64,000 bases of DNA from Gekko japonicus (taxonomy: Eukaryota), in assembly GCF_001447785.1 (NCBI RefSeq), contig NW_015176087.1, forward strand, positions 30,411 to 94,410, written 5' to 3'. Position numbers and translations under genes: made by a program. Shown one piece after another: positions 4,865 through 64,000 of the stretch. Under the pieces are notes generated by a model, which was given only the letters and a program-made list of their open reading frames with translations, had not been told where the DNA came from and did no database searches. The number at the start of each line of letters is the position of its first letter. The first letter of the stretch is position 1.

Positions 4865-4959
4865 TTAGTGAACTGAACTGCAAAAAGAAAAAGAAAAAAC
4901 CCCACCTTTTTTGGTAAAGAAATGGTACTAATAGATCAAAAAGAAATTACTGCTTTCTG

Positions 4960-5350
4960 TAAGCTTGTTTAATTAATCTCCTAGGAATTGAGAAGAAGTA
5001 AAAAAAAAGAGTCTTTATTTCTGGCTCATTTATTAAGTGATCATACTTTCAGAGCTAGAAATAGAACAAGGCTTGCATTAACTTTCAGTTGAGCTTCTGG
5101 TTCACTGGGGAGTCTAACTCTGTAATGTTGTAATTATTATGACCCTTTCAACTTTAGATTATTTCAGACACACACTACATTTAATGATCTCCCTGAAGAG
5201 AGATCAGAAAGAAAATTACAAGTGTTCATTAGAATGCTTTGGGTGATCATGGTTTCCAAATAGTCTAATGAAGCGCAGTTATCCAGAGAGCTTCCCAGAT
5301 GTTTTGTAGGCTCCTTTCAGAAATTAATTGATCCTCAAGTGGTCACATGG
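4960..5350. promoter_or_regulatory. Candidate OR-cluster enhancer: three homeodomain + O/E(EBF)-like composite motifs
   Basis: TAATTA-atc-TCCTAGGA (4970-4986), TAATGA-tct-CCCTGAAG (5182-5198), TAATTG-atc-CTCAAGTG (5325-5341), with extra TAAT cores between, in AT-rich DNA with no repeat I could recognise. Function is inferred. Confidence 0.45.
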
Positions 5351-5719
5351 CATCTTTGTGCAATTTTTTCTGAGAGTACTGAAATTCAAAATATTGATTA
5401 GAAGCATATTTTCCAAGCAGGTTAATGCTTATGTCAAATTTGAAGTTACAGATGTCTTTTCAAGTGAAACACATTCCAGCCAAATTACAATCTCCAATCC
5501 CATCCTTTATAGAAAAGGTTGGGATAATTTGGGGTTGTATTGAACCAGATTTTCTGCTGGTGAAAAAAGAAAAGAAGCTATGCTGGGGATAAGGGGGCCT
5601 ATGTGGACAAGAGCGACATGGGATGGGAGCTATTGAAAGGAGGCAAAGTGGGCAAGAATCAGCAAAACAGCCATCGGGATCCAACCTTTTGAATCCCACA
5701 TCTCTGCTCTTTCAAATCC

Positions 5720-5891
5720 AAAATCAAGTTTGAGTCCAGTGGCACCTTTAAGACCAATGGAGTTTTATTCAAGGTGTGCACGCACACACAAAGGCTTATA
5801 CCTTGAATAGCACTTTGTTGGTCTTGAAGGTGTCACTGGACTCAAACTTGGTTTTGCTGCTTCAGATCAACACAGCTACCCATCTGAATCT
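5720..5891. mobile_element. Penelope-like element terminal repeat in inverted arrangement
   Basis: Arms caagtttgagtccagtggcacctttaagaccaa and ttggtcttgaaggtgtcactggactcaaacttg. Related sequence at 61565-61690. Confidence 0.65.
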
Positions 5892-8379: not shown

Positions 8380-9520
8380 TATGGTTGCCAGCTCCAGGTT
8401 GGGAAATGCATATAGATTTGGGGGTGGAGTCTGGGGATGGTGGGGTTTGAGGAGGGGAGAGACCTCAACCAGATATAATGCCATAGAACCCACCCTCAAG
8501 AGCAGCCATTTTTCTTCAGGGGTACAGATCTCCGTCATCTGGAAATCAGTTGTAATTCTGGGAGATCTCCAGGTCCCTCCTGGCAGTTGGCAACCTTATG
8601 CCTTTCAGCAACTACTGGATGACTTGAAACCAGCTGACTCACATGACTCAACTAGGCCTGGCTGCTTGCCACTGTCCAACAGCAGCTATTTAATGAAAGC
8701 CAGTGTGGTGTAACCGTTACATCTTCAGACTAGGGTCTGGGGCTGGAGTCTTCCTGTGGAAGCTCACTGGGTGAAGTTGAGCCAGTCACATGCTTTTAGA
8801 CTAACCTACCTCACAGGTAGGGTTGCCAAGTGTAACTTACCTCAGCAGCAGGGGACTCCTCTCGGATGGTTGTGGCCCCGCCCCCAGCGTGCCTGGCATC
8901 ATAACGTCACTTCTTGGTGACGCGCATGCCAGGGTGGGGTTCCCCCCGGGACCCGAACTTCCAGCGGCGGGGGACGGGGCTCTGTGGCAGGGGGTTTCCC
9001 CCAAAAAAAGCCCTCGGTTTTGACAACAAACAGAGTAAACAGAATGAGAAGCAAAAGGTGAGTGTGGTAACATGAGGGTGTGGTCTAATATGCTAATGAG
9101 CTGTGAGATCAGGGGTGTGGCCTAATATGCTAATGAGTTCCTGTTGTTGGGTGTGGCCTATTATGCTAATTAGTTCCTGCTGGGCTTTTTTTCTACAAAA
9201 AAAGCCCTGGTACACGATAAGGCTGGCCCTCTGAAATTGCTGTTTTTTTCCTTGGGGAGCTGTTCTATATAGTCTAGAGATCATTTGTAATTCCAGGAGA
9301 ACTCCAGGCTGTACCTGGAGGTTGGTAACTCTATTAGACATAGGGTTGCCAGCTCCGGGTTGGGAGATACATGGAATTTTTGAGGGGTTTGGGGAAGGGA
9401 GGAGCTTTAATGGGGTATAATGTCATAGAGTCCACCTTCCAAAGCAGCCATTTTCTTCAGGTGAACTGATCTGTCACCTGGAAATCAGTTGTAATCCCAG
9501 GAGATCCTCAGACAATGCAT
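8380..9520. mobile_element. Cluster of TAGGGTTGCCA-family and related MITE copies plus a SINE head
   Basis: Repeated gggttgcca/tggcaacc termini and a shared gtccacc..gcagccattttc..gatctc body at 8380-8598, 8818-9020, 9220-9333 and 9341-9510. Related copy at 6763-6960. Confidence 0.65.
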
Positions 9521-11975: not shown

Positions 11976-12887
11976 CTAGTCAATCAGTTTCCACAGAGCT
12001 CCTTTGATATCTTTGTTTCTCATGCTATATATTAAGGGGTTCAGGAATGGTGGAACGACACAATAAGCTACAGCAGCCACTAGATCCACCTTTGATGGAG
12101 TCCTGTTGGTTGGTCGGAAGTAGGCAAAGACACCAAAGGAATAGAACATGAAAAGTACAATGATGTGGGGCAGGCAGGTAGAGAAGGCCTTTTGCCTTCC
12201 CTGCACAGATGGGATTCTCATCACTGCTTTGAAGATCTGCACATATGAAATAAGGATGAAAAGGAAGCAGCTAAAATATAAGCAACCAGTTAGGATAATA
12301 GCTCCAACTTCAAGGAGATACATGTGAGAGCAAGTGATCTTTAGCAGTTGTGGGATTTCACAGAAGAACTGGTTGATGACATTGGAACAGAAAGGGCTTG
12401 CAAATGTTGCTCCAGTATGTAAAGTTGCTGTCAGAAGGCCAAATGTCCATGCAAAGGCTGCCATTTGGACACAGGCAACTCTGTTCATGACAGTTTCATA
12501 ATGCAGTGGGTGACAAATGGCAGCATAGCGGTCATAGGCCATAACTGTCAGGAGAAAGAATTCAGATGCTCCAAAGAGAACAAAGGAAAAAGTTTGGGCA
12601 ACACAATGAGAATACAAAATCCACTTCGTTTTCATTAAGGAATTGGCCATAACTTTGGGGATGGTGACTGAGATGTATCCAAGGTCAACAGCAGATAGAT
12701 TTAAGACAAAGAAATACACTGGAGTATGGAGGTGGTGGTTGAGAACTATTATGGTGATGATTATAAGATTCCCCATCAGAGCCACAATATAAGTTATGAA
12801 AAATATCATAAAGTATAAACTTTGCACCTCTTGGGCTTCAGAAAAACCTACAAGTAGAAAGTACGTTATCGTGCTTTTGTTGGGCAT
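11976..12887 (-). CDS. Olfactory receptor, class II, OR14-like (OR-1), 303 aa, intact
   Basis: Single-exon ORF with OR motifs GNLIII, LHTPVYFF, MAYDRYAAICHPLHY, FFCEIPQLL, KAFSTC, PFLNPLIYSMRNKD and an N-terminal NKS sequon. Splice acceptor 29 nt upstream of the ATG. Confidence 0.96.
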   Translation of the reverse strand: MPNKSTITYFLLVGFSEAQEVQSLYFMIFFITYIVALMGNLIIITIIVLNHHLHTPVYFFVLNLSAVDLGYISVTIPKVMANSLMKTKWILYSHCVAQTFSFVLFGASEFFLLTVMAYDRYAAICHPLHYETVMNRVACVQMAAFAWTFGLLTATLHTGATFASPFCSNVINQFFCEIPQLLKITCSHMYLLEVGAIILTGCLYFSCFLFILISYVQIFKAVMRIPSVQGRQKAFSTCLPHIIVLFMFYSFGVFAYFRPTNRTPSKVDLVAAVAYCVVPPFLNPLIYSMRNKDIKGALWKLID

Positions 12888-16159: not shown

Positions 16160-17233
16160 TACTTGAAAGCCTTCAAAGTGCTGTCATGAACTCTTTATTC
16201 CTCATGCAGTAAATGATAGCATTGAATAAAGGGAGAATGACTGAATTTAACACAGCAAGTACAAGACCTAAATCTGGTGGAGACACATGATTGCCTACCA
16301 AATAAACAGTGCTTCCACTGATGAGAAGAGGACAATCAAGTGAAGTTGGTAAATAGGTTCCTTCTTTGTGTAGAAGGGATCTTCAGTAACTCTCTTAAAA
16401 TCTGGAAATAGGAAACAATTATAAACCAAACTCACTATCCCTATAAGAATGCAGGGAAGATAACAGCAGGATCTTCAGGAATATATGTAGGCTTTCAAAG
16501 AAGAACTGGTTCATAACTTTGGAGCAGAAGGTGATTACAAATGTACAGCTAGTGTGTAAGATCTGAACTAGACATTACATTTTGTGAGTTTGCCTGGGTC
16601 ATTTTGGCTGTTGAAAACAGTGGTGGGGGGATGCACTCTTCCTTTCCTCATACTGCTCTCCCAAGCAAAATTGGGTTCATCAGTGCTTTTTGCACAAGTT
16701 GCCACAGGGACTTGGAGTGGCAATATGACAAACTCATGAAAAAATTTAGTTGACTTCTAAACATCTAGTTGATTTCTAAAAGGTCATTAAAGAGGCTAAA
16801 AAGCCTTACTCTAGCTACTCTTGGAAAACAAGATACTTTATTCCCAAGATGATCGTATTGCAATGAGATGCAGTTGGCAACATACTGGCCATAGGCCATG
16901 AGAGTCAAGAAGAAGCATTCCAATGTTATAAAAAGGAGGAGGATGACTTGGTCCACAAATTCAGAATATGTAATTTGTCTGGTTGCTAAAAAGTAACTAG
17001 TTACTTTTGTTATGGTGACTGGGATATTACCAAACTCCATAGTAGCTAAATTCACCAGGAAAAAAATATACTGGAGTATGAAGATATTGGTTGAAGATTA
17101 CAGCAACCATCACCAGCAGATTTCCAGTCAGGGCTGCCAGACATATGATGAAAAATGCCACAAAGTATAAATTATCTTGGATTTCAAAGAATTGCCAGAG
17201 AAGAAACTTGGTCATGATGCTCTGTTTGGCCAT
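16160..17233 (-). pseudogene. Olfactory receptor pseudogene (OR-2p)
   Basis: Reads MAKQS..GNLL..LHTPVYFF, then frameshifts at the A-run near 17060. Later pieces read MAYGQYVANC, LHTSCTFVITFCSKVMNQFFFE, IIVSYFQI..KIPST and PLFNAIIYCMRNKE..AL*. The sequon and DRY are lost and a 217-bp insertion interrupts it. Confidence 0.93.
16560..16776. mobile_element. MITE (PIF/Harbinger-like) inserted in the OR pseudogene
   Basis: TAA on both sides (16557-16559, 16777-16779) and imperfect aactaga/tctagtt termini. Removing it restores N-D-L-L-H-T-S-C. Confidence 0.7.
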
Positions 17234-20908: not shown

Positions 20909-21844
20909 CTAAATGGAACTTGGATTTTTGTTTCTATGTGAAAGCTTCCAAAGTGCAGCTATGATGTCTTTGTTCCTCATGCTATAGATGAGGGGATTCA
21001 TAAAAGGAGGGACCATTGAATATAGCACAGCAAGGAGTAGATCCAAACCTGATGATGTCCTAAAGGTTGACCCCAAGCAAGCATAGAGACCAGTGAAATA
21101 GAACAAACAGAGCACAGCAAGGTGGGGTAGGCAGGTAGTCAAGGCTTTTTTCCTTCCCTGTGTTGAAGGGATATTAAATACAGCTCGGAAAATGTGCACA
21201 TAGGAAACAATGGTGAAACCAAAACAGATTATGCATATCAGCGCAGTAAAGATAAGAGCTCCAATTTCTATGAGGTAGGAGTCAGAGCAGGAAAGCTTCA
21301 GCAGCTGTGGGATTTCACAGAAGTACTGGTTGATAACATTGGAGCAAAAAGGGATGGCAAATGTGCAAGCAGTGTTCAGCGTGGCATCAAACATCCCAAA
21401 CATCCACGCACTGGCAGCCAATTTCATGCAGACTCCCATGTTCATTTCTTTCACATAGTTCAGGGGATGGCAGATGGCAACGTAGCGATCATAGGCCATG
21501 ACTGTCAGGAGGAAGAACTCCGATGCGCCCGCCCAAAAGAAGAAGAAGACTTGTGCCATGCATGCAAAATAGGAGATCGTCCTGGTTTTCATCAGAGAGT
21601 TAGCCATGGCTTTGGGCACCGTGACAGAGATGAAACTGAGATCAATAGCAGCTAAATTAGCCAGGAAAAAATACATTGGAGTATGAAGATGCTGGTTGAG
21701 AGTTACAATTGTTATCATGAGAAGATTCCCAACCAAGGCTGCCATATACATAAGCAAAAAGCCCAAAAAGTGTAAAATGTGCAATTCTGGAATGTCAGAG
21801 AATCCTAAAAGCTGGAATTCACTCACAACACTTTGGTTGGCCAT
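20909..21844 (-). CDS. Olfactory receptor, class II, OR14-like (OR-3), 311 aa, intact
   Basis: MANQS sequon, LHTPMYFFL, MAYDRYVAICHPLNY, YFCEIPQLL, KALTTC, PFMNPLIYSMRNKD. Confidence 0.97.
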   Translation of the reverse strand: MANQSVVSEFQLLGFSDIPELHILHFLGFLLMYMAALVGNLLMITIVTLNQHLHTPMYFFLANLAAIDLSFISVTVPKAMANSLMKTRTISYFACMAQVFFFFWAGASEFFLLTVMAYDRYVAICHPLNYVKEMNMGVCMKLAASAWMFGMFDATLNTACTFAIPFCSNVINQYFCEIPQLLKLSCSDSYLIEIGALIFTALICIICFGFTIVSYVHIFRAVFNIPSTQGRKKALTTCLPHLAVLCLFYFTGLYACLGSTFRTSSGLDLLLAVLYSMVPPFMNPLIYSMRNKDIIAALWKLSHRNKNPSSI

Positions 21845-25170: not shown

Positions 25171-27537
25171 CAATACTTTCTGAGGTCTGTTTTTGTTTGT
25201 TATTAATATATAAACATTATTTTGTATTGTTCTTTAAGAAGTCAGAAGTCCTGGACTTGAAGCATATAAGCTTTTTCAATGATCACATTTAATGTAACCT
25301 AATACCTTTTTATTTTTACCACCACCTCTTGGGTTTTTCTTTTCTTTCTCCTGTAGTTTGTACTTCCCTGTCCCTATTTTCTTGTAGTGTTTTAGGAAAT
25401 AATAAAAAAGATGGTGAAAAGGCCTCCCACTCCCCTTTTCGGAAGCAGAAAAGCTGGTGGGGTCCCACCCTATGTGACCAATATGATAAACAAAGACATA
25501 CAATGGAAGACTGAGCTGTATTAAATCCTTGCAACATGCTCTGTACTGGATACCTTAGAAATAACCAGTCAAGGACTTTGACTTTCAAAAGTCAAGTGAA
25601 AGACAATTGGTTTTAATATTTCAGATACGAAATATGGAACCCAGTTTACTTCCCACAATGCTTTTTCTAGCATATACAGTAAATTACCTGCAACTTACTA
25701 GTTTGCAATTACTTTATGTTTGTCTTTGTGAATGAACCTTAATTTCTCCCATTGTGTATAAAAGCATTATGAAATGGGGCATATAAGTGTGGAATTGCAA
25801 CCCCAAGTGGCACTCCACAAAAAGGGGATGGATGGGTCATGTAGATTCCAGTTTCTCTCTGAACATTCTAAATTCTATGGACAGAACTGGACACCTAATT
25901 TATAGTTCCATATCAAAATGCATGGAGAACCTACACACTGGAGCCATGTGCGAACCTTATAGCAGACATATCTATTATTATGGACTGAGTTTGGAGGCAT
26001 CATGCTCCACATTCCACTAAAAAATACAGAATCACTCAGTAATGCTAGATCTTTGAAATAGTTTCACTTATTTCTACTGGACTTGCTTTGCAGAATATGT
26101 GTTTAACCTCCTATCCCCGGGACAATAAAACGTATTATTTTTGGAATACTTTATCTGATATGGATTCAGACTTATTGTAATGGCATCTGCAAGGTGGAAC
26201 AGCAGCTACCAGGTGAGGAGTCAAACTGTCTGAATAATGTCAGCCTTACCAGAAACCAGTGTTTCCATCCGCTCTTTGAGAGACTGAAATTTCCCCCATC
26301 ATTCTGAGACTTTCTTTTCCAAATATCCTAATCAAGCCTGTGAGTTGCCACTAATTTAACACCTTCCCAGAGTAAATGAGAGGACCCTGTGATGCTCACC
26401 TAGATATTCTGCCCATGCCTCAGAGAAACCAGCTCTGGTAACAGTTGTTTCCTTCTCATGATGAACACACACAAGAACTTTGCGTGAGGAAAATCCTATC
26501 TGGAGAATATTTTGCACACACACGATCTTCTTTTGCACAGCTCTTATGCCTTCCCAGTTACTAAATCGTTTGTGCTATATTCTGTGATAGTGAAGAACAA
26601 TTGATGTATGCTCCTGAACAAGTGGAATAGCATAAGAATCCTCAATAACAAAACAGAGTATCATGATGATGTACTGAACAAAGAAACATGGATATGTGCG
26701 AGAAAGATGGTAAAAAACAAAAACAAAAACACTTACTGCTTTAGAATTCTTCCAAGGCCTATAAACCGTACTCCTGAGTTCTTTCAGTATTTAGCTTGGG
26801 ATATCTTTATAGTTCTGCACTGTGGATAAAATCCATTGTCTGACTGTCACCATGAAAGGAACTGTAGTACCCAAGCTTGTTTTGCTAAAGGGGTTTACTG
26901 CTAATCATAAGCAGGGACAGAATCCTTGTTTGGGCTGGAAGTTTATCTCTGCTTCATGTACAAGGGGGCTTGGAGATTTTGACGCTGGAGCTTGTAGTAA
27001 TTAGTTCCTAGGGAACGGTAGCTATATCTAAATATTTTAAGTAACATTTATTGACTCAGGATGTTTCTTAACCTGCTTTTCTCCACAATGGGGACCCAAA
27101 ATGGCTCACAACAAAACCTGCCAGCAGTGCAGCGGGGACCAATTATTTCCCAGCCTACCTAAGCCGAGGCCTGGGAGGGCTGCTTTGTTGGATCAACTGG
27201 TCTCCTAGGTGCAAGCCTCCAAGCCCGGAATCCCTGCAAAGGCAACCTGACTTCAGGGAGAAGGACACTACCTTTCTCTGGAGCAGCTCAGAACCCATTA
27301 TTAATTAAAAACCAGCAGTAAAAACCCAGCCAGAGCATAAAAACATAAAACACCGAGCCACTTCAAATTAGTCATACACAATTCTCAGGCTAAAAGCAGG
27401 ATATAAAAACCTGTTAAAATCTACCCCCTTAATTAAAGCCCTGGGTAAAAACAAACAGTTTGGCTTGGCATCTAAAAAACAGTAGTGCAGGAACCAGGCT
27501 AGCCTAGAAAAGAGAGGCACTCCACAGGTCAGGTACC

Positions 27538-40434: not shown

Positions 40435-40670
40435 AGACATACTGTGTTAATTATCAAGTTACGTTTGTTCCAAAAACAGAAGATGTAATATAGCAACAGA
40501 AAATGGTTTCAGTCTGAGACCACAATTAAGTGAGCTGAACTCTTGGGAGTAAGTTGCCAAGCACAGGATATAAATGGATCTTTTTCTCATTTACACAGAG
40601 TTTAGGTTTTGGTTAGACAGAAATTATGAATGTACTTTGTAGCAAGTCCCCCAAGAACATGTAAGGAATT
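40435..40670 (+). promoter_or_regulatory. Candidate OR-5 promoter/first non-coding exon module
   Basis: gttaattatc (homeodomain core), ctcttgggag (O/E-like), gatataaat (TATA-like), then a gtaagg donor near 40661. Homologous modules at ~49450-49690 and ~60880-61080. Confidence 0.45.
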
Positions 40671-49449: not shown

Positions 49450-49690
49450 CAGACATACTGTGTTAATTATCAAGTTATGTTTGTTACAAAAACAGAATAA
49501 ATAATATAGCAAATGGAAAAGGGTTTCAGCCTCAGATCACAATTAAGTGAGTTGAACTCTTGGGAGTAAGTTGCCAAGCACAGGATACAAATGGATCTCT
49601 TTCTCATTTACACAGCCTTTTAGGTTTGGGTTAGACAGAAATTAGGAATGTACTTTGTAGCAAGTCCCACAAGCAGATGTAAGGAATTAG
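49450..49690 (+). promoter_or_regulatory. Candidate OR-6 promoter module (duplicate of 40435-40670)
   Basis: Same ordered motifs: gttaattatc, ctcttgggag, gatacaaat, gtaagg. Confidence 0.45.
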
Positions 49691-55187: not shown

Positions 55188-57837
55188 TGTTAGAGAATGA
55201 GATTGACATTTGCTTTATGGGCTATATTTATTGCTACACACAATGGACTGTGCACACACACATAGGCTCAAAAGGCTGTACACTATAAGACACCTGTTGT
55301 GATACTATACATAGAAGGTGCATGCACATGCCTTACATGTGAATAAGGTTTCAGCTACACAGTTACCCAGCCTGGTGAAGAAGCACAAACCTCCATTAGT
55401 GTGAGCAATGAGAAAACAACAGCTTGAGAAGAGAAAGCCCCCATTGCAGAAATAGTTGTGGTCACGTACTACCCATCACTGCTTTGTTCCTGAGAAGGCA
55501 TTTCCTGCCAAATGGACAGTTGGTTTTCAATAGAATGGCCAGCTTCATCAACACTACAATGGAGCATCTTGATGCCAGAGTTTCACACCTGTCCAGATGC
55601 CATCCTTTGAGTAAGGTTTTAGATTTCAATATTGGCCACTCCTTATAGGTAACCTCCCACTCCTATTTGCAACCAATAGGATTGTTTTTGGGACGGACTA
55701 ACAGGTAGGTGGGTCAAGAGATAATAACTAAAAATTGTATAGAGAAGATGAATAAAGAATTACAAGAGGTGTCAAAGATGGAGGTAGTTAAAAAAGTGAA
55801 GTATTTAGGGATTACAATTTCAAACCGTAATATAACCCTAATAGAAGATAACTATAATAAGCTTCTTAAGAATATCAAAAGAGATTTAGAGATTTGGAAA
55901 GATTTGAAGATTTCCCTGATGGGAAGAATAGCGGTTATTAAAATGAATATTCTACCCAGATTTCTGTTCTTGGCACAAAATTTGCCGGTATTAAGAAAAG
56001 CTAGGTATTGTACTGAGTGGGACAATATTTGCAATAAATTTATATGGGACAGTAAAAAACCAAGAATTAAACGGAAATATCTGCAAGATAAAAAGGAAAA
56101 AGGAGGATTCGGGGTACCAAACTGGAGAGTATATTATAAAGCAGCTGCACTAACTTGGATTAAAGATTGGGTGACTTTAGACAATGACAGACTGTTGAAA
56201 CTGGAAGGATTTAATCTAGCCACGGGATGGCATAATTATATTTGGTACCAGGAAGCAAAGGTTGCAAGAAATTTTATGCAGCATACTATAAGAGGAGCGC
56301 TGATGGATGTATGGAAGGAGATAAAAATAAGACATTATCTAAAGACGCCCAAATGGGTGGCACCTATAGAGGCAATAACAATACCAACCCTGATGGAGAC
56401 AAAAAAGAAATTTACATATGATGAATTATTAGAGAGAAATAACAATATAAAGACAGATGAACAGCTGAAAAAACATAATATAATCTTGACCTGGTGGGAT
56501 AGAACTCAAATTAATGCTAGACTTAATATAGACAAAAAAAGAGGTTTCTATGAAGAAAAAAATGAGCTGGACAAGATCTGGCTTTCCTCCAATGATAAAA
56601 TGATGCAAAAATTATATAAAATGCAACTGGAAGAGTATCTAATGGGAGATCTGATTAAAAATACAATGTTGACATGGTCTAAGGACTTGGGGGAAGATAT
56701 AAAAGTAGAACAATGGGTTAAAGTCTGGCAATCAATAAAATTAATGCGAGCTATTCCACTTAAAGAAAACATTTACAAAATGTTTTATAGATGGCATTGG
56801 ACGCCGGAGAAATTAGCGAAATGCTACGCTAATGCAAATAGAAATTGTTGGAAATGTAAAAATAATGTTGGCACGTATATGCATATGTGGTGGAGATGCG
56901 ATAAAGTTCAGCATTATTGGAAAAGAGTATATAAAATAATTAACGCAATCATGGTCATACAAATACCATTTAAACCAGAGGTAGCTTTGTTGAATATATT
57001 CCCAGATGAGATAAGTAATAATGATAAATATGTTATGTTAAACTGCTTCTCAGCAGCGAGAATTTTATTAGCAAAAATGTGGAAGGAGGAAAAAGTACCT
57101 TCAGATAAAGAGATAATAGATAAAATTCTGTATGTAGTCGAAATGGATAGATTAACTGTAAGACTACAATGTAAAAGCAGAGTGATATTTGAAAAAAGAT
57201 GGAAACCATTTTATACTTGGCTGGAAAATGTAAAAAAAAAATAAGACTCGCAAGCATAAAATGTAAACCGAAAATGGGTGTATATATAACAAAATGAAAA
57301 TAAACTATTAAAAAAAAAAAGAGGTTGGCACAGCCACAACCCATCTCTTGAACCCTCTATAAAAGGAAAGGACCATTCACCTGGCCCTTCCTAGCTAGCA
57401 ACCCCTGCAACAACCCCCGTCTGCTTTTTACTCCCCTTAAGTCCCACTTGCTATCCCCAACCCTTGCCTCCACTGCCCACTCGTTCTGGCTGGTTCTGGT
57501 CGTGTGTGAATTCCCTTAGTTTTCTATTTCTTCCCATCCATTCTTCATTGGAACAACCAAGCTGCAAGACAGATAAGTATTGCCCACCATCACCCCTACC
57601 TGGTAATGCAACCGTGCTTATTTTAATACTGTATTTCTAAGGAACTTGATTGAATGTGTGAGTGAATCAGTATTTTTTGTATGAGATTTATATTCTTAAG
57701 TAAAAGACATCTATTCTAACTACAACAGCCTCAAAATCTTTTACTGGTAACCCTTGGTGGGAACAGGACCTTGGTATGGTTGGCAAGGACCCATTAATAA
57801 ATTGCCAATTGCTGTAAATAAAGCAATTTGGCTAACA
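55188..57837 (+). mobile_element. Solo LTR (~1 kb, copy B only) interrupted by an L1
   Basis: Termini tgttag..ctaaca, 4-bp TSD ctct (55184-55187, 57838-57841), TATA-like ctataaaa near 57357, empty site gacCTCTcac at 45901-45910. Confidence 0.88.
55709..57320 (+). mobile_element. L1 LINE, 5'-truncated, ORF2 C-terminal 511 codons open
   Basis: KYLGITI, SLMGRIAVIKMNILPRFLFL, GGFGVPN, CWKC..GTYMHMWWRC. AATAAA at 57299 followed by an A-tail. Confidence 0.93.
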
Positions 57838-60879: not shown

Positions 60880-61080
60880 TGGTATGCTGTGCTAATTATC
60901 TATTTAGGTTAGTTACAAAAAAATAGAATAAATGATACACGAGAGGGAAAAGGCTTCACCATCACTTGGCTGATAACTGAGGTGAACTCCTGGGAACAAG
61001 ATGCCATGAACAGAACATAAATTAAGCACTGTCTTACACAGCCTTTTTTATTATGATTTGACAGAAATTAGCAGAGTATA
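60880..61080 (+). promoter_or_regulatory. Third, more diverged copy of the promoter-like module
   Basis: gctaattatc..tgaggtgaactcctgggaacaagatgcca..acataaat..ttacacagcc..gacagaaatta aligns to 40445-40630 and 49460-49650. Confidence 0.45.
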
Positions 61081-61564
61081 TTATACCACTCCATCTATGG
61101 AATGGCCTGGACAAGGAAATTTAAACAATTGAAGGAGAAATTGAACCAGACCTTCTCTCATTTGTCACAGATTTTAATTAATATTATCAATCCATTGGTC
61201 CACATCCACATCAAGAATGAAGAAATAATGCTTGATGACAGAACTTCCGCAGAAAAGGAGATGGGGAACCTAAGAGGAAAAGATCTGGAGAAGAAGCAGG
61301 ACTCCAAGGTATTCCATAATGTTAGGTAATGGAAAATCAGTGTGTGGGGGTAGAATGATTGTAGCACAGAATCAACGTTACTCCATCCTGTCTTTTACAA
61401 TGTTTTACTATGTTATATGGAAGTGTTTCATTAATCACAAATCTTAAAAAAAATAAAATTATGTCAGTGTGTTAGAGGAATTGCTCCTGGAGCCATGATG
61501 CCAAACTCCCTATATGCATTTATTGATCCATGTCCGTTTGTGAATGCAAACCTATGAATACATG

Positions 61565-61692: not shown

Positions 61693-63287
61693 AATGAAAA
61701 AAAAAAGGGAAAGGGTGTTCAAATCATACATGTTTATTTAGAATAAAATGGGCAGCCAAAAGAAAAGGAGAGAGACAGGGCATATTCAAAACCTAAGGGA
61801 GCGGTTGTTACTGTCTAAAGGGGTAAAATGGAGAATATACAATATACATTTCCTGTCAGGTTAGAAGGGTTGTGGTGTTAAATGGTAAAAGACTCATTAA
61901 CTATTCTGGGTGAGAGATGGTCTTTGGGGAAGTCTGCCTTTGGTCGTCAAGGATGCCTGAATCTGAACTGCAGTGCAAAAGAGCCCTTTTAATATCATTG
62001 GGCCTAAGGACCACTGGAGTGGGATTCAGGAGCTGGGTGAAAAAATCTAGTTTGAATTAGAACAACCAGTGGGGAAGCTGAGAAGCTTACTGGATATGGG
62101 GAACCAGATTGAATTAAAATTAGGAAGACAAAGGATTAGGGTGGCTGTTGGGGATGGCATGGTTTGAGTCCTGCTTCTCTCGGTGACCCAGGAAACCTAC
62201 TTTCTTTTGGGATAAAATTGATCATTTGAAAGCTCTAAGAGGGGAATGCAGCATTCATAGAAATCAGCAAGGTAGAGTTAAAGTAATTCTCAGGCATCCA
62301 AGACAGGCCCTTTACAATGGTGGCCCAAGCTTTCTAGGGCTCTGTGGGTGTATAAATACCATTTACAGTATGGCTACTCTTAACCCTTTATGGAAAAAGT
62401 ACTCCAAAAAGGGGGACCCTAGTGGCCAGTTTTTATTGTCCACTCTGTCAGGAATATAGGACTACAAGGGAGGGGACTCCTAAGGGACTCATCACCGTGT
62501 GTGTGGGGAGATATTGTCTATGTAACCACAGCCCTTTATGTGTGGAACTGGATAAGGGATCAGAAAACTGTCCACTGACCCTTCCTATGCATGCGCAAGT
62601 TGGGTATGAGTCCCTCTATGAGGTTTGGTATAATTCCAGGTCAACTTACCAGAGTCTATGAACATGGAAGTTGTACAAGCTTAGGTCTGAGCAAACTAAG
62701 ACATGGAGGGTGGGATTGGGGACAGCCCATGCAGTTTGGCCATGCACAAACTATCCCATTTTTTCCTTGTTCAACACAGGGTTAGCTATTGATTTCTGAC
62801 AAGAAAAGCTGAATTTGTTTGAACATATGGAACTGTTATACTTTGTCTTGAGAGTTTTTGTTGTTTCTGTGCTTGTTTTTTTCTAATAGTANNNNNNNNN
62901 NNNNNNNNNNNNNNNNNNNNNNNNNNNNNNNNNNNNNNNNNNNNNNNNNNNNNNNNNNNNNNNNNNNNNNNNNNNNNNNNNNNNNNNNNNNNNNNNNNNN
63001 NNNNNNNNNNNNNNNNNNNNNNNNNNNNNNNNNNNNNNNNNNNNNNNNNNNNNNNNNNNNNNNNNNNNNNNNNNNNNNNNNNNNNNNNNNNNNNNNNNNN
63101 NNNNNNNNNNNNNNNNNNNNNNNNNNNNNNNNNNNNNNNNNNNNNNNNNNNNNNNNNNNNNNNNNNNNNNNNNNNNNNNNNNNNNNNNNNNNNNNNNNNN
63201 NNNNNNNNNNNNNNNNNNNNNNNNNNNNNNNNNNNNNNNNNNNNNNNNNNNNNNNNNNNNNNNNNNNNNNNNNNNNNNNNNNNNNNN

Positions 63288-64000
63288 CCACTGATGGACC
63301 TCTGCTCCATATGCTTATCTAATTCCCTTTTGAAGCCGTCCATGCTTGTAGCTGCCACCACTTCCTGTGGCAGTGAATTCCATGTGTTAATCACTCTTTG
63401 GGTGAAGAAGTACTTCCTTTTATCCGTTCTAACCCGACCGCTCTGCAGTTTCATGGAGTGCCCACGAGTTCTTGTATTGTGAGAAAGGGAGAAAAGTACC
63501 TCTTTCTTTACCTGCTCTTTCCCATGCATAATCTTATAAACCTCAATCATGTCACCCCTCAGTCGTCGTTTCTCCAAGCTAAAGAGCCCTAAGCGCCTTA
63601 ACCTTTCCTCATAGGGAAAGTGTTCCAACCCTTTTATCATTCGAGTTGCCCTTTTCTGCACTTTTTCCAAAGCTATAATATCCTTTTTAAGGTGTGGTGA
63701 CCAGAATTGCACACAGTATTCCAAATGAGGTCTCACCATTGATTTATATAGGGGCATTATGATATTGGCTGATCTGTTTACAATACCCTTCCTAATAATC
63801 CCCAGCATAGCATTTGCCTTCTTTATTGCAGTCACACACTGTCTCAACATTTTCAGTGAGTTATCTATTACAACTCCAAGATCTCTCTCTTGATCAGTCT
63901 CTGCCAGTTCAGACCCCATCAACGTGTATTTATATTTAGGATTTTTGGCTCCAATGTGCATCACCTTGCACTTGGCCACATTGAATCCCATTTGCCATGT
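63288..64000 (-). mobile_element. CR1 LINE ORF2 C-terminal part, open frame
   Basis: FNVAKCKVMHIG..ERDLGV..PLYKSMVRPHLEYCVQFWSP..LEKVQKRATRMI..LGLFSLEKRRLRGD. Runs off the window. Confidence 0.95.

Follow-up and report, generated by a model that had tools for sequence, protein, structure and literature searches.

The window considered here, a 64,000-nucleotide stretch of gecko DNA (C16377:30411-94410), belongs to a 128-kb contig with 11 OR genes or fragments, and OR genes are found on both sides of the non-coding element that is the subject of this analysis (Table 1), which thus has an intergenic position inside an OR cluster. The nearest OR reading frame within the window had been described, in an earlier sequence-only reading of this DNA, as pointing its 3' end at the element, and this holds for the intact OR14-family gene. 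The best named relatives of this gene are OR14A16/14I1-like genes of Eublepharis (88%), Hemicordylus (77%), and snakes (67-73%), whereas it reaches only roughly 55-60% with its neighbors. Given that its best matches are spread across geckos, lizards, and snakes, the gene can be regarded as an old anchor adjoining the element, and its relatives also bear out the squamate host that had been supposed, which is gecko-like.

Just beyond the left edge of the window, the minus strand carries a frameshifted OR, which turns its 5' end toward the element at a distance of about 7.3 kb, and whose start, together with the place of its expected promoter, falls inside a run of N. Because of this orientation, the main rival to an interpretation of the element as an enhancer came to be that it serves as the promoter of this gene outside the window. 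The remaining features of the window include a degraded and distantly related OR pseudogene within the OR14 array (16167-17233, minus strand, 29-48%, in three pieces), and two long ORFs (55748-57244, plus strand; 62786-63991, minus strand) which, from a reading of their translations, resemble LINE reverse-transcriptase/ORF2 fragments.

Table 1. Coordinates of the element, its motifs, and its surroundings in the window.
Feature	Position	Strand	Remarks
Conserved non-coding element, candidate OR enhancer	4932..5428		Extent defined by homology to the paralogues
Multi-copy repeat, left boundary	4677..4864		Matches at other loci
Flanking repeats, right boundary	5524..5889 (about 5524-5660 and 5714-5889)		Multi-copy matches; depth jump in three organisms
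Composite site 1: TAATTA + 3 nt + EBF-like half	4970..4986	+	0 pattern mismatches
Composite site 2: TAATGA + 3 nt + EBF-like half	5182..5198	+	1 pattern mismatch
Composite site 3: TAATTG + 3 nt + EBF-like half	5325..5341	+	0 pattern mismatches
Extra homeodomain site TAATGA	5266..5271	+	6/6 invariant across four paralogous copies
Stand-alone EBF/O-E-like site	5102..5111		Matches 9 of 10 bases in the core of the Ebf probe from the OMP promoter
OR14-family gene, intact; closest intact candidate target	11976..12887	-	303-aa ORF; 3' end faces the element

The segment 4960-5350 is AT-rich, as first described, with a GC content of 35%. No repeat match was found in 4865-5713 in a comparison with 0.41 Mb of DNA, and multi-copy repeats are present at both sides, in agreement with the earlier description of DNA without a recognizable repeat, flanked by TE-dense sequence. 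A further multi-copy repeat, at about 5524-5660, is visible on related-species contigs. Nor was a transposable-element identity found when sought in the form of many dispersed copies, given that the element query returned one genome-wide match and a paralogue query three, although these genome-wide copy counts are lower bounds. Among the 24 runs listed, none represents olfactory ChIP or ATAC, and no RNA source of the stretch was found. The RNA reads on 4880-5700 cover only the repeat at 5524-5635 (3% of one run, of unknown tissue), and have no bearing on expression.

Composite sites in the window

When at most two mismatches are allowed, a search with the pattern TAAT[TG][AG] + 3 nt + CCCNNGGG re-finds the three homeodomain-EBF composites previously noted at 4970, 5182, and 5325, all on the plus strand, with the identical spacing and orientation claimed for them, and with exactly the two mismatches counted in each EBF half. 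The pattern mismatches in Table 1 refer to the published 17-position mouse composite pattern (PMC11643329), a loose grading which differs from the score cut-offs of the original HOMER matrix. The 3-nt spacer of the gecko sites is the spacing given for the mouse Lhx2/Ebf composite in the same source, and the segment 4968-4988 is identical at 19 of 21 positions to the Sfaktiria composite EMSA probe of Monahan 2017 (PMC5608512), in which a 2-bp insertion is described as impairing competition for the Lhx2-Ebf fusion protein.

The three composite motifs are real, and their occurrence is beyond chance. In dinucleotide shuffles of 4960-5350 (n = 20,000), three sites were recovered in none and two sites in three, and among 300 block-shuffled 64-kb windows, a three-site cluster within 400 bp was observed in three and a single-strand cluster in none. 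In a spacer scan of the contig, the 3-nt spacer returned 14 matches, the top value of 21, in comparison with 0-11 for the 20 other spacers, and spacer 18 likewise produced one three-site cluster. The comparison with a shuffled background, which had been proposed as a check of the original suggestion, therefore shows a motif density in excess of the background. It also argues against an alternative in which the element was left behind, as a neutral relic, by a segmental duplication of long ago, with motifs that are chance matches surviving in AT-rich DNA, given that no local shuffle contained all three sites.

Paralogous copies and conservation

A pattern scan of 581 kb of other OR14 contigs recovered two composite pairs, both on contig C2321, and blastn with the element as the query aligned it with C2321:112219-112691 (60.7% over 509 columns, E 3e-22) and C2321:51656-52122 (60.6% over 502 columns, E 3e-19), two paralogues that sit in another OR14 cluster. 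A third paralogue is located on a 4-kb contig (C38909), and the three share 87-91% identity. A profile search of about 1.4 Mb, of which 1.26 Mb are OR contigs carrying 102 OR genes, recovered only these four copies within this span, with more distant copies being possible elsewhere in the genome. Outside 4932-5428, no alignment of the window copy with the paralogues was found besides repeats and OR genes, and the two C2321 copies align with one another over much longer stretches than with the window copy.

Sites 1 and 3 are present in all four copies, in which 27 of their 34 columns are invariant, in comparison with 160 of the 348 columns elsewhere in the element (p = 2.3e-4). By site, the invariant columns number 14 of 17 in site 1, 13 of 17 in site 3, and 9 of 17 in site 2. 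The homeodomain hexamers of sites 1 and 3, and that of the extra site at 5266, are kept in full in every copy, and the EBF halves vary in sequence at a constant spacing, with the paralogues carrying a better EBF half at site 3 (one core mismatch) than the window copy. Site 2 is absent as a composite from the paralogues, and the stand-alone EBF/O-E-like site is not retained as such in them; other blocks within the element are also conserved among the copies. Judged by this comparison, the old sites are 1 and 3; site 2 either arose in the window copy or disappeared from the other branch. In the three paralogues that are close to one another, all 34 site columns are constant, as opposed to variation at 50 of the 329 remaining core columns (p = 0.008) and at 132 of 722 flank columns (p = 0.002). 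The core as a whole does not differ significantly from the homologous flank (50/363 versus 132/722 variable, p = 0.07), a figure that leaves out flank columns that look misaligned.

The orthologous stretch 4880-5700 (821 nt) can be compared with three other organisms, which differ by 19 (A), 45 (B), and 49 (C) substitutions, with a further 50 gap letters in organism B. The counts by position refer to changes in A and B among the 40 differences listed of 83, with changes found only in C falling outside them and organism B assumed to be complete to 5452. On this basis, none of the 44 aligned motif positions is substituted, against 35 of 527 overall (one-sided p = 0.042), and the positions invariant among the paralogues change less across species than the others (6/182 versus 16/192, p = 0.047). 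A block of 107 nt (5022-5128), which holds the stand-alone O/E-like site, contains no listed change in A or B (permutation p = 0.006), and composite sites 1 and 2 likewise have no listed change in either. The difference between core and flank is not significant (20/371 versus 15/156, p = 0.085), and an 8-nt deletion from 5335 in organism B damages the EBF half of site 3. As the species compared are close, these data constitute weak support, with one contrary event, the deletion in B. The check on conservation that had been proposed for the locus thus comes out partly in favor of an enhancer, in that sites 1 and 3 are selectively kept in paralogues of 60% identity, but the regional peak is weak (p = 0.07-0.09).

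This evidence bears directly on the neutral relic. Patchy alignment, at 60-61%, is also seen in the DNA upstream of OR genes that were duplicated long ago, so the alignability of the element on its own shows nothing, and the persistence of such patches at about 60% identity, the non-significant regional conservation, and the damage to site 3 in organism B are all compatible with neutral decay, as are the loose composite pairs found elsewhere away from any OR (see below). Neutral decay does not account for the motif-specific retention in the paralogues (p = 2e-4), nor for the rarity with which two or more composites survive simulated decay to 61-69% identity (0.15-0.43% of 20,000 runs per setting), nor for the failure of flanks that align between the close paralogues to align with the window copy. 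A neutral origin of the motifs is considered very improbable.

With four element copies per 69 OR genes in the OR14 contigs examined, the element appears to have been duplicated as the OR14 cluster grew. An oddity of the family is that the element copies are 60% identical, in comparison with 82% for the OR genes alongside them, which points to an older duplication of the element, and the neighboring OR genes were probably homogenized or re-duplicated later. The OR adjoining the element is broken at two of the three loci where it is visible, with the sites intact there, and three of the five members examined of this adjoining OR subfamily carry a disrupting stop or frameshifts (C16377:20306-21214, C16377:27250-27980, and C2321:116190), although the breaks in the adjoining genes may be recent or assembly errors.

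Promoters of the OR14 genes and composites elsewhere

The OR genes adjoining the three readable element copies form a single subfamily, with about 82% DNA identity including 1.2 kb of upstream DNA. In the upstream alignment of this subfamily, a block located 1.0-2.0 kb before the start codon combines a homeodomain-like site with an O/E-like site at a distance of 11 nt and with the sequence TATAAAT. When iterated over 876 kb with 69 OR genes, a profile of this block recovers 33 promoter-like copies, 28 of which are found in the sense orientation 1.0-3.9 kb ahead of an OR start. The O/E-like site is present in 24 of the 33 copies and TATAA in 17, with no composite in any. From their position and motifs, these copies may be taken to represent the OR14 promoters. 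In many of the blocks, the homeodomain site is located 11 nt before the O/E-like site, with a TATA-like box about 25 nt after. Three of them lie in the window (40478-40657, 49494-49676, and 60925-61102, all on the plus strand), and others are found at C16377:22152-22333 (minus strand) and on contigs C2321, C11890, C15760, C11884, C14719, and C9655. For five of the promoter-like copies, the next OR start on the same strand is over 5 kb away, which may reflect the loss of a gene or the presence of a long intron.

The presence of a distinct promoter family at the nearby OR14 genes makes it improbable that the element is itself an OR promoter. A reading as a distal or alternative promoter, with a first exon, of the OR subfamily located 3.5-7.3 kb away does draw on the position of the three readable copies, all of which are upstream of, and in the same orientation as, genes of this one subfamily. 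Homeodomain and O/E sites are also described for OR promoters, and the mouse P enhancer is said to have been discovered through its similarity to a promoter (PMC12547500). The gecko element, unlike P, is not matched by the local promoter profile, being absent from the 40 matches at E<=0.5, and 4932-5428 contains neither a TATA-like hexamer nor, facing the gene, a GT[AG]AG splice donor. At both C2321 loci, a promoter-like copy, the subfamily's own O/E + TATA promoter at 1.1-2.1 kb from the start codon, stands between the element and the gene, and two of the five subfamily members examined (C16377:21214 and C2321:64971) have no element copy. The broken state of the adjoining genes at two of the three loci is a further argument against this reading, which is therefore rated as unlikely. 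For the specific proposal of a promoter serving the gene left of the window, the C2321 loci provide the contrary evidence, but at the window locus itself the expected promoter position is the run of N, which would hide a proximal promoter.

Outside the element family, single composites are not enriched in the 1.26 Mb of OR clusters, where 52 non-repeat matches were counted, or 43 without the nine of the element family, against 29-48 for 12 other spacers. Same-strand composite pairs in these clusters number nine, six of them from the element family, with the remaining three comparing with 0-2 for other spacers. The evidence is thus limited to the element family, and does not extend to a genome-wide set of reptile Greek Islands. 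At the scale of the genome, composite pairs reached 73 against 42 in the control, with a pattern that is partly fitted to the element, and chained triples were restricted, among the matches listed, to the element and four repeat arrays. A pair pattern fitted to the family recovered the four copies and two other places without nearby ORs, and no OR was found within the 10-20 kb examined around any of 11 other pair loci, nine from the genome-wide pair scan and these two.

A number of other candidates were considered and set aside. A single strong composite does not serve as a genome-wide marker of ORs, given that the tight pattern has three matches, the other two of which have no OR within 30-60 kb. 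The looser pattern has 83 matches against 61 in a reversed control, with only that of the element falling on known OR contigs, defined here by listed OR candidates (139 of 1018 and 131 of 1226). A class I counterpart of the J element was not supported, as a composite cluster is absent from 90 kb at the edge of a class I cluster. A second cluster in the window, at 26998-27430, was rejected as it includes only one strong unique site, with the others beside repeat-like DNA, and this site has no paralogue.

The strong site of this second cluster (26998-27014, plus strand) has no pattern mismatches, and occupies unique DNA at a distance of 5.2 kb upstream from the OR at 21844; the weaker sites are those at 27145 (minus strand) and 27430 (plus strand). 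In another class II OR cluster, same-strand composite pairs at C8401:111493-111670 and C8401:234740-234784, the sites of which have no paralogues, are candidates at the background level. A common repeat, found at position 9167 of the window and in at least 15 places on other OR contigs, carries a composite-like sequence with two core mismatches and 1-2 pattern mismatches, in 21-41 copies in the DNA examined. At least 16 of 82 composite matches stem from one common repeat, which inflates the composite counts, and new sites could be seeded in this way.

Relation to known receptor enhancers

Taken together, the motif density, the retention of sites in the paralogues, and the separate promoter family make it likely that the element is a Greek-Island-type enhancer of the gecko OR14 cluster. 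The original suggestion of a squamate enhancer of this kind is supported in this form at the level of sequence, most of the checks set for it having come out in its favor, with the amendment that only two of its three sites are old. By analogy with the mouse, the TAAT half of each fixed-spacing composite is predicted to be occupied by Lhx2, and the half next to it by Ebf, in olfactory neurons, where, together with Ldb1, these factors would maintain the element in an open state within the silenced cluster. The element may then contact, by looping, the promoter (O/E + TATA) of a single OR14 gene in its vicinity, as expected from the mouse, which would raise the chance of that gene being chosen.

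The mouse Greek Islands, as described in PMC5608512, hold 0-4 composites above a permissive score, a range that includes the three of the gecko element, and number 63 for more than 1000 ORs, in comparison with about 17 OR genes for each element in the gecko contigs examined. Like these islands, the gecko element is intergenic within a class II OR cluster, measures about 400-500 bp, and has the same composite spacing with degenerate Ebf halves. Unlike the islands, which are defined by Lhx2/Ebf ChIP and ATAC, it is reptilian, is defined by sequence alone, and forms a family of paralogues. It shares the grammar of homeodomain and O/E sites with the H and P enhancers and with OR promoters. The composite is reported to be enriched in mouse enhancers and not in promoters (PMC5608512, PMC12547500), and the gecko promoter family, with its O/E and TATA motifs and no composite, fits the description of mouse OR promoters (PMC12547500).

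The J element has a core of 330-430 bp, which contains multiple homeodomain sites as well as an O/E-like site and a composite on which its activity depends, and is described as conserved from platypus to human, and as not found in zebrafish or Xenopus (PMC7804114, PMC5638857). The gecko element resembles it in the scale of this core and in all three kinds of site, and differs in having two to three composites and in belonging to a class II cluster of OR14 genes, as opposed to the class I cluster of the single-copy J element. The mouse TAAR enhancers 1 and 2 also combine a composite with single Lhx2/Ebf sites within a chemoreceptor cluster; they are reported to be placental-only, with enhancer 2 duplicated together with receptor genes in some mammals (PMC8213717), and serve TAAR genes, unlike the element of the OR14 cluster.

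The element might also be functional, bound by homeodomain proteins and Ebf, and yet not an activator of OR choice, acting instead as a weak or shadow element, as a boundary, or in another cell type. Composites are also described in mouse elements other than the Greek Islands (PMC11643329), far from all of these islands have had enhancer activity demonstrated (PMC12547500), and the further conserved blocks within the gecko element would fit such a role. Against this, all three copies with readable surroundings lie inside OR14 clusters, and their combination of motifs is that of known OR enhancers, which leaves this reading with very little probability in comparison with that of a Greek-Island-type enhancer.

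Composite-bearing OR enhancers are described only in mammals in the sources considered here (PMC5608512, PMC7804114, PMC5638857, PMC8213717, PMC11643329, PMC12547500), and a literature search largely confined to work outside subscription journals found no reptile or bird OR enhancer. Within this literature, the gecko element would be the first candidate found in the reptile lineage for an otherwise known kind of enhancer. The mouse H and Lipsi enhancers are described as driving reporters in zebrafish olfactory neurons, which makes a reporter test of the gecko copies cheap. Zebrafish OR enhancers also exist (E15).

A broader scenario, which is put forward tentatively, as a possibility slightly more doubtful than probable, is that the fixed-spacing composite and the division between enhancers with it and O/E + TATA promoters without it were already present in the common ancestor of mammals and reptiles, that the gecko OR14 clusters grew by the duplication of an enhancer module with composites, and that the four copies form hubs and would work unchanged in mouse or zebrafish olfactory neurons. 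If the element is indeed an enhancer of the mouse kind, its family would date the Lhx2/Ebf composite code to the early amniotes, before the split between mammals and reptiles, and the four natural enhancer variants, with their 33 matched promoters, would represent a test set for the ancestry of the hub mechanism through which one receptor is chosen per neuron.
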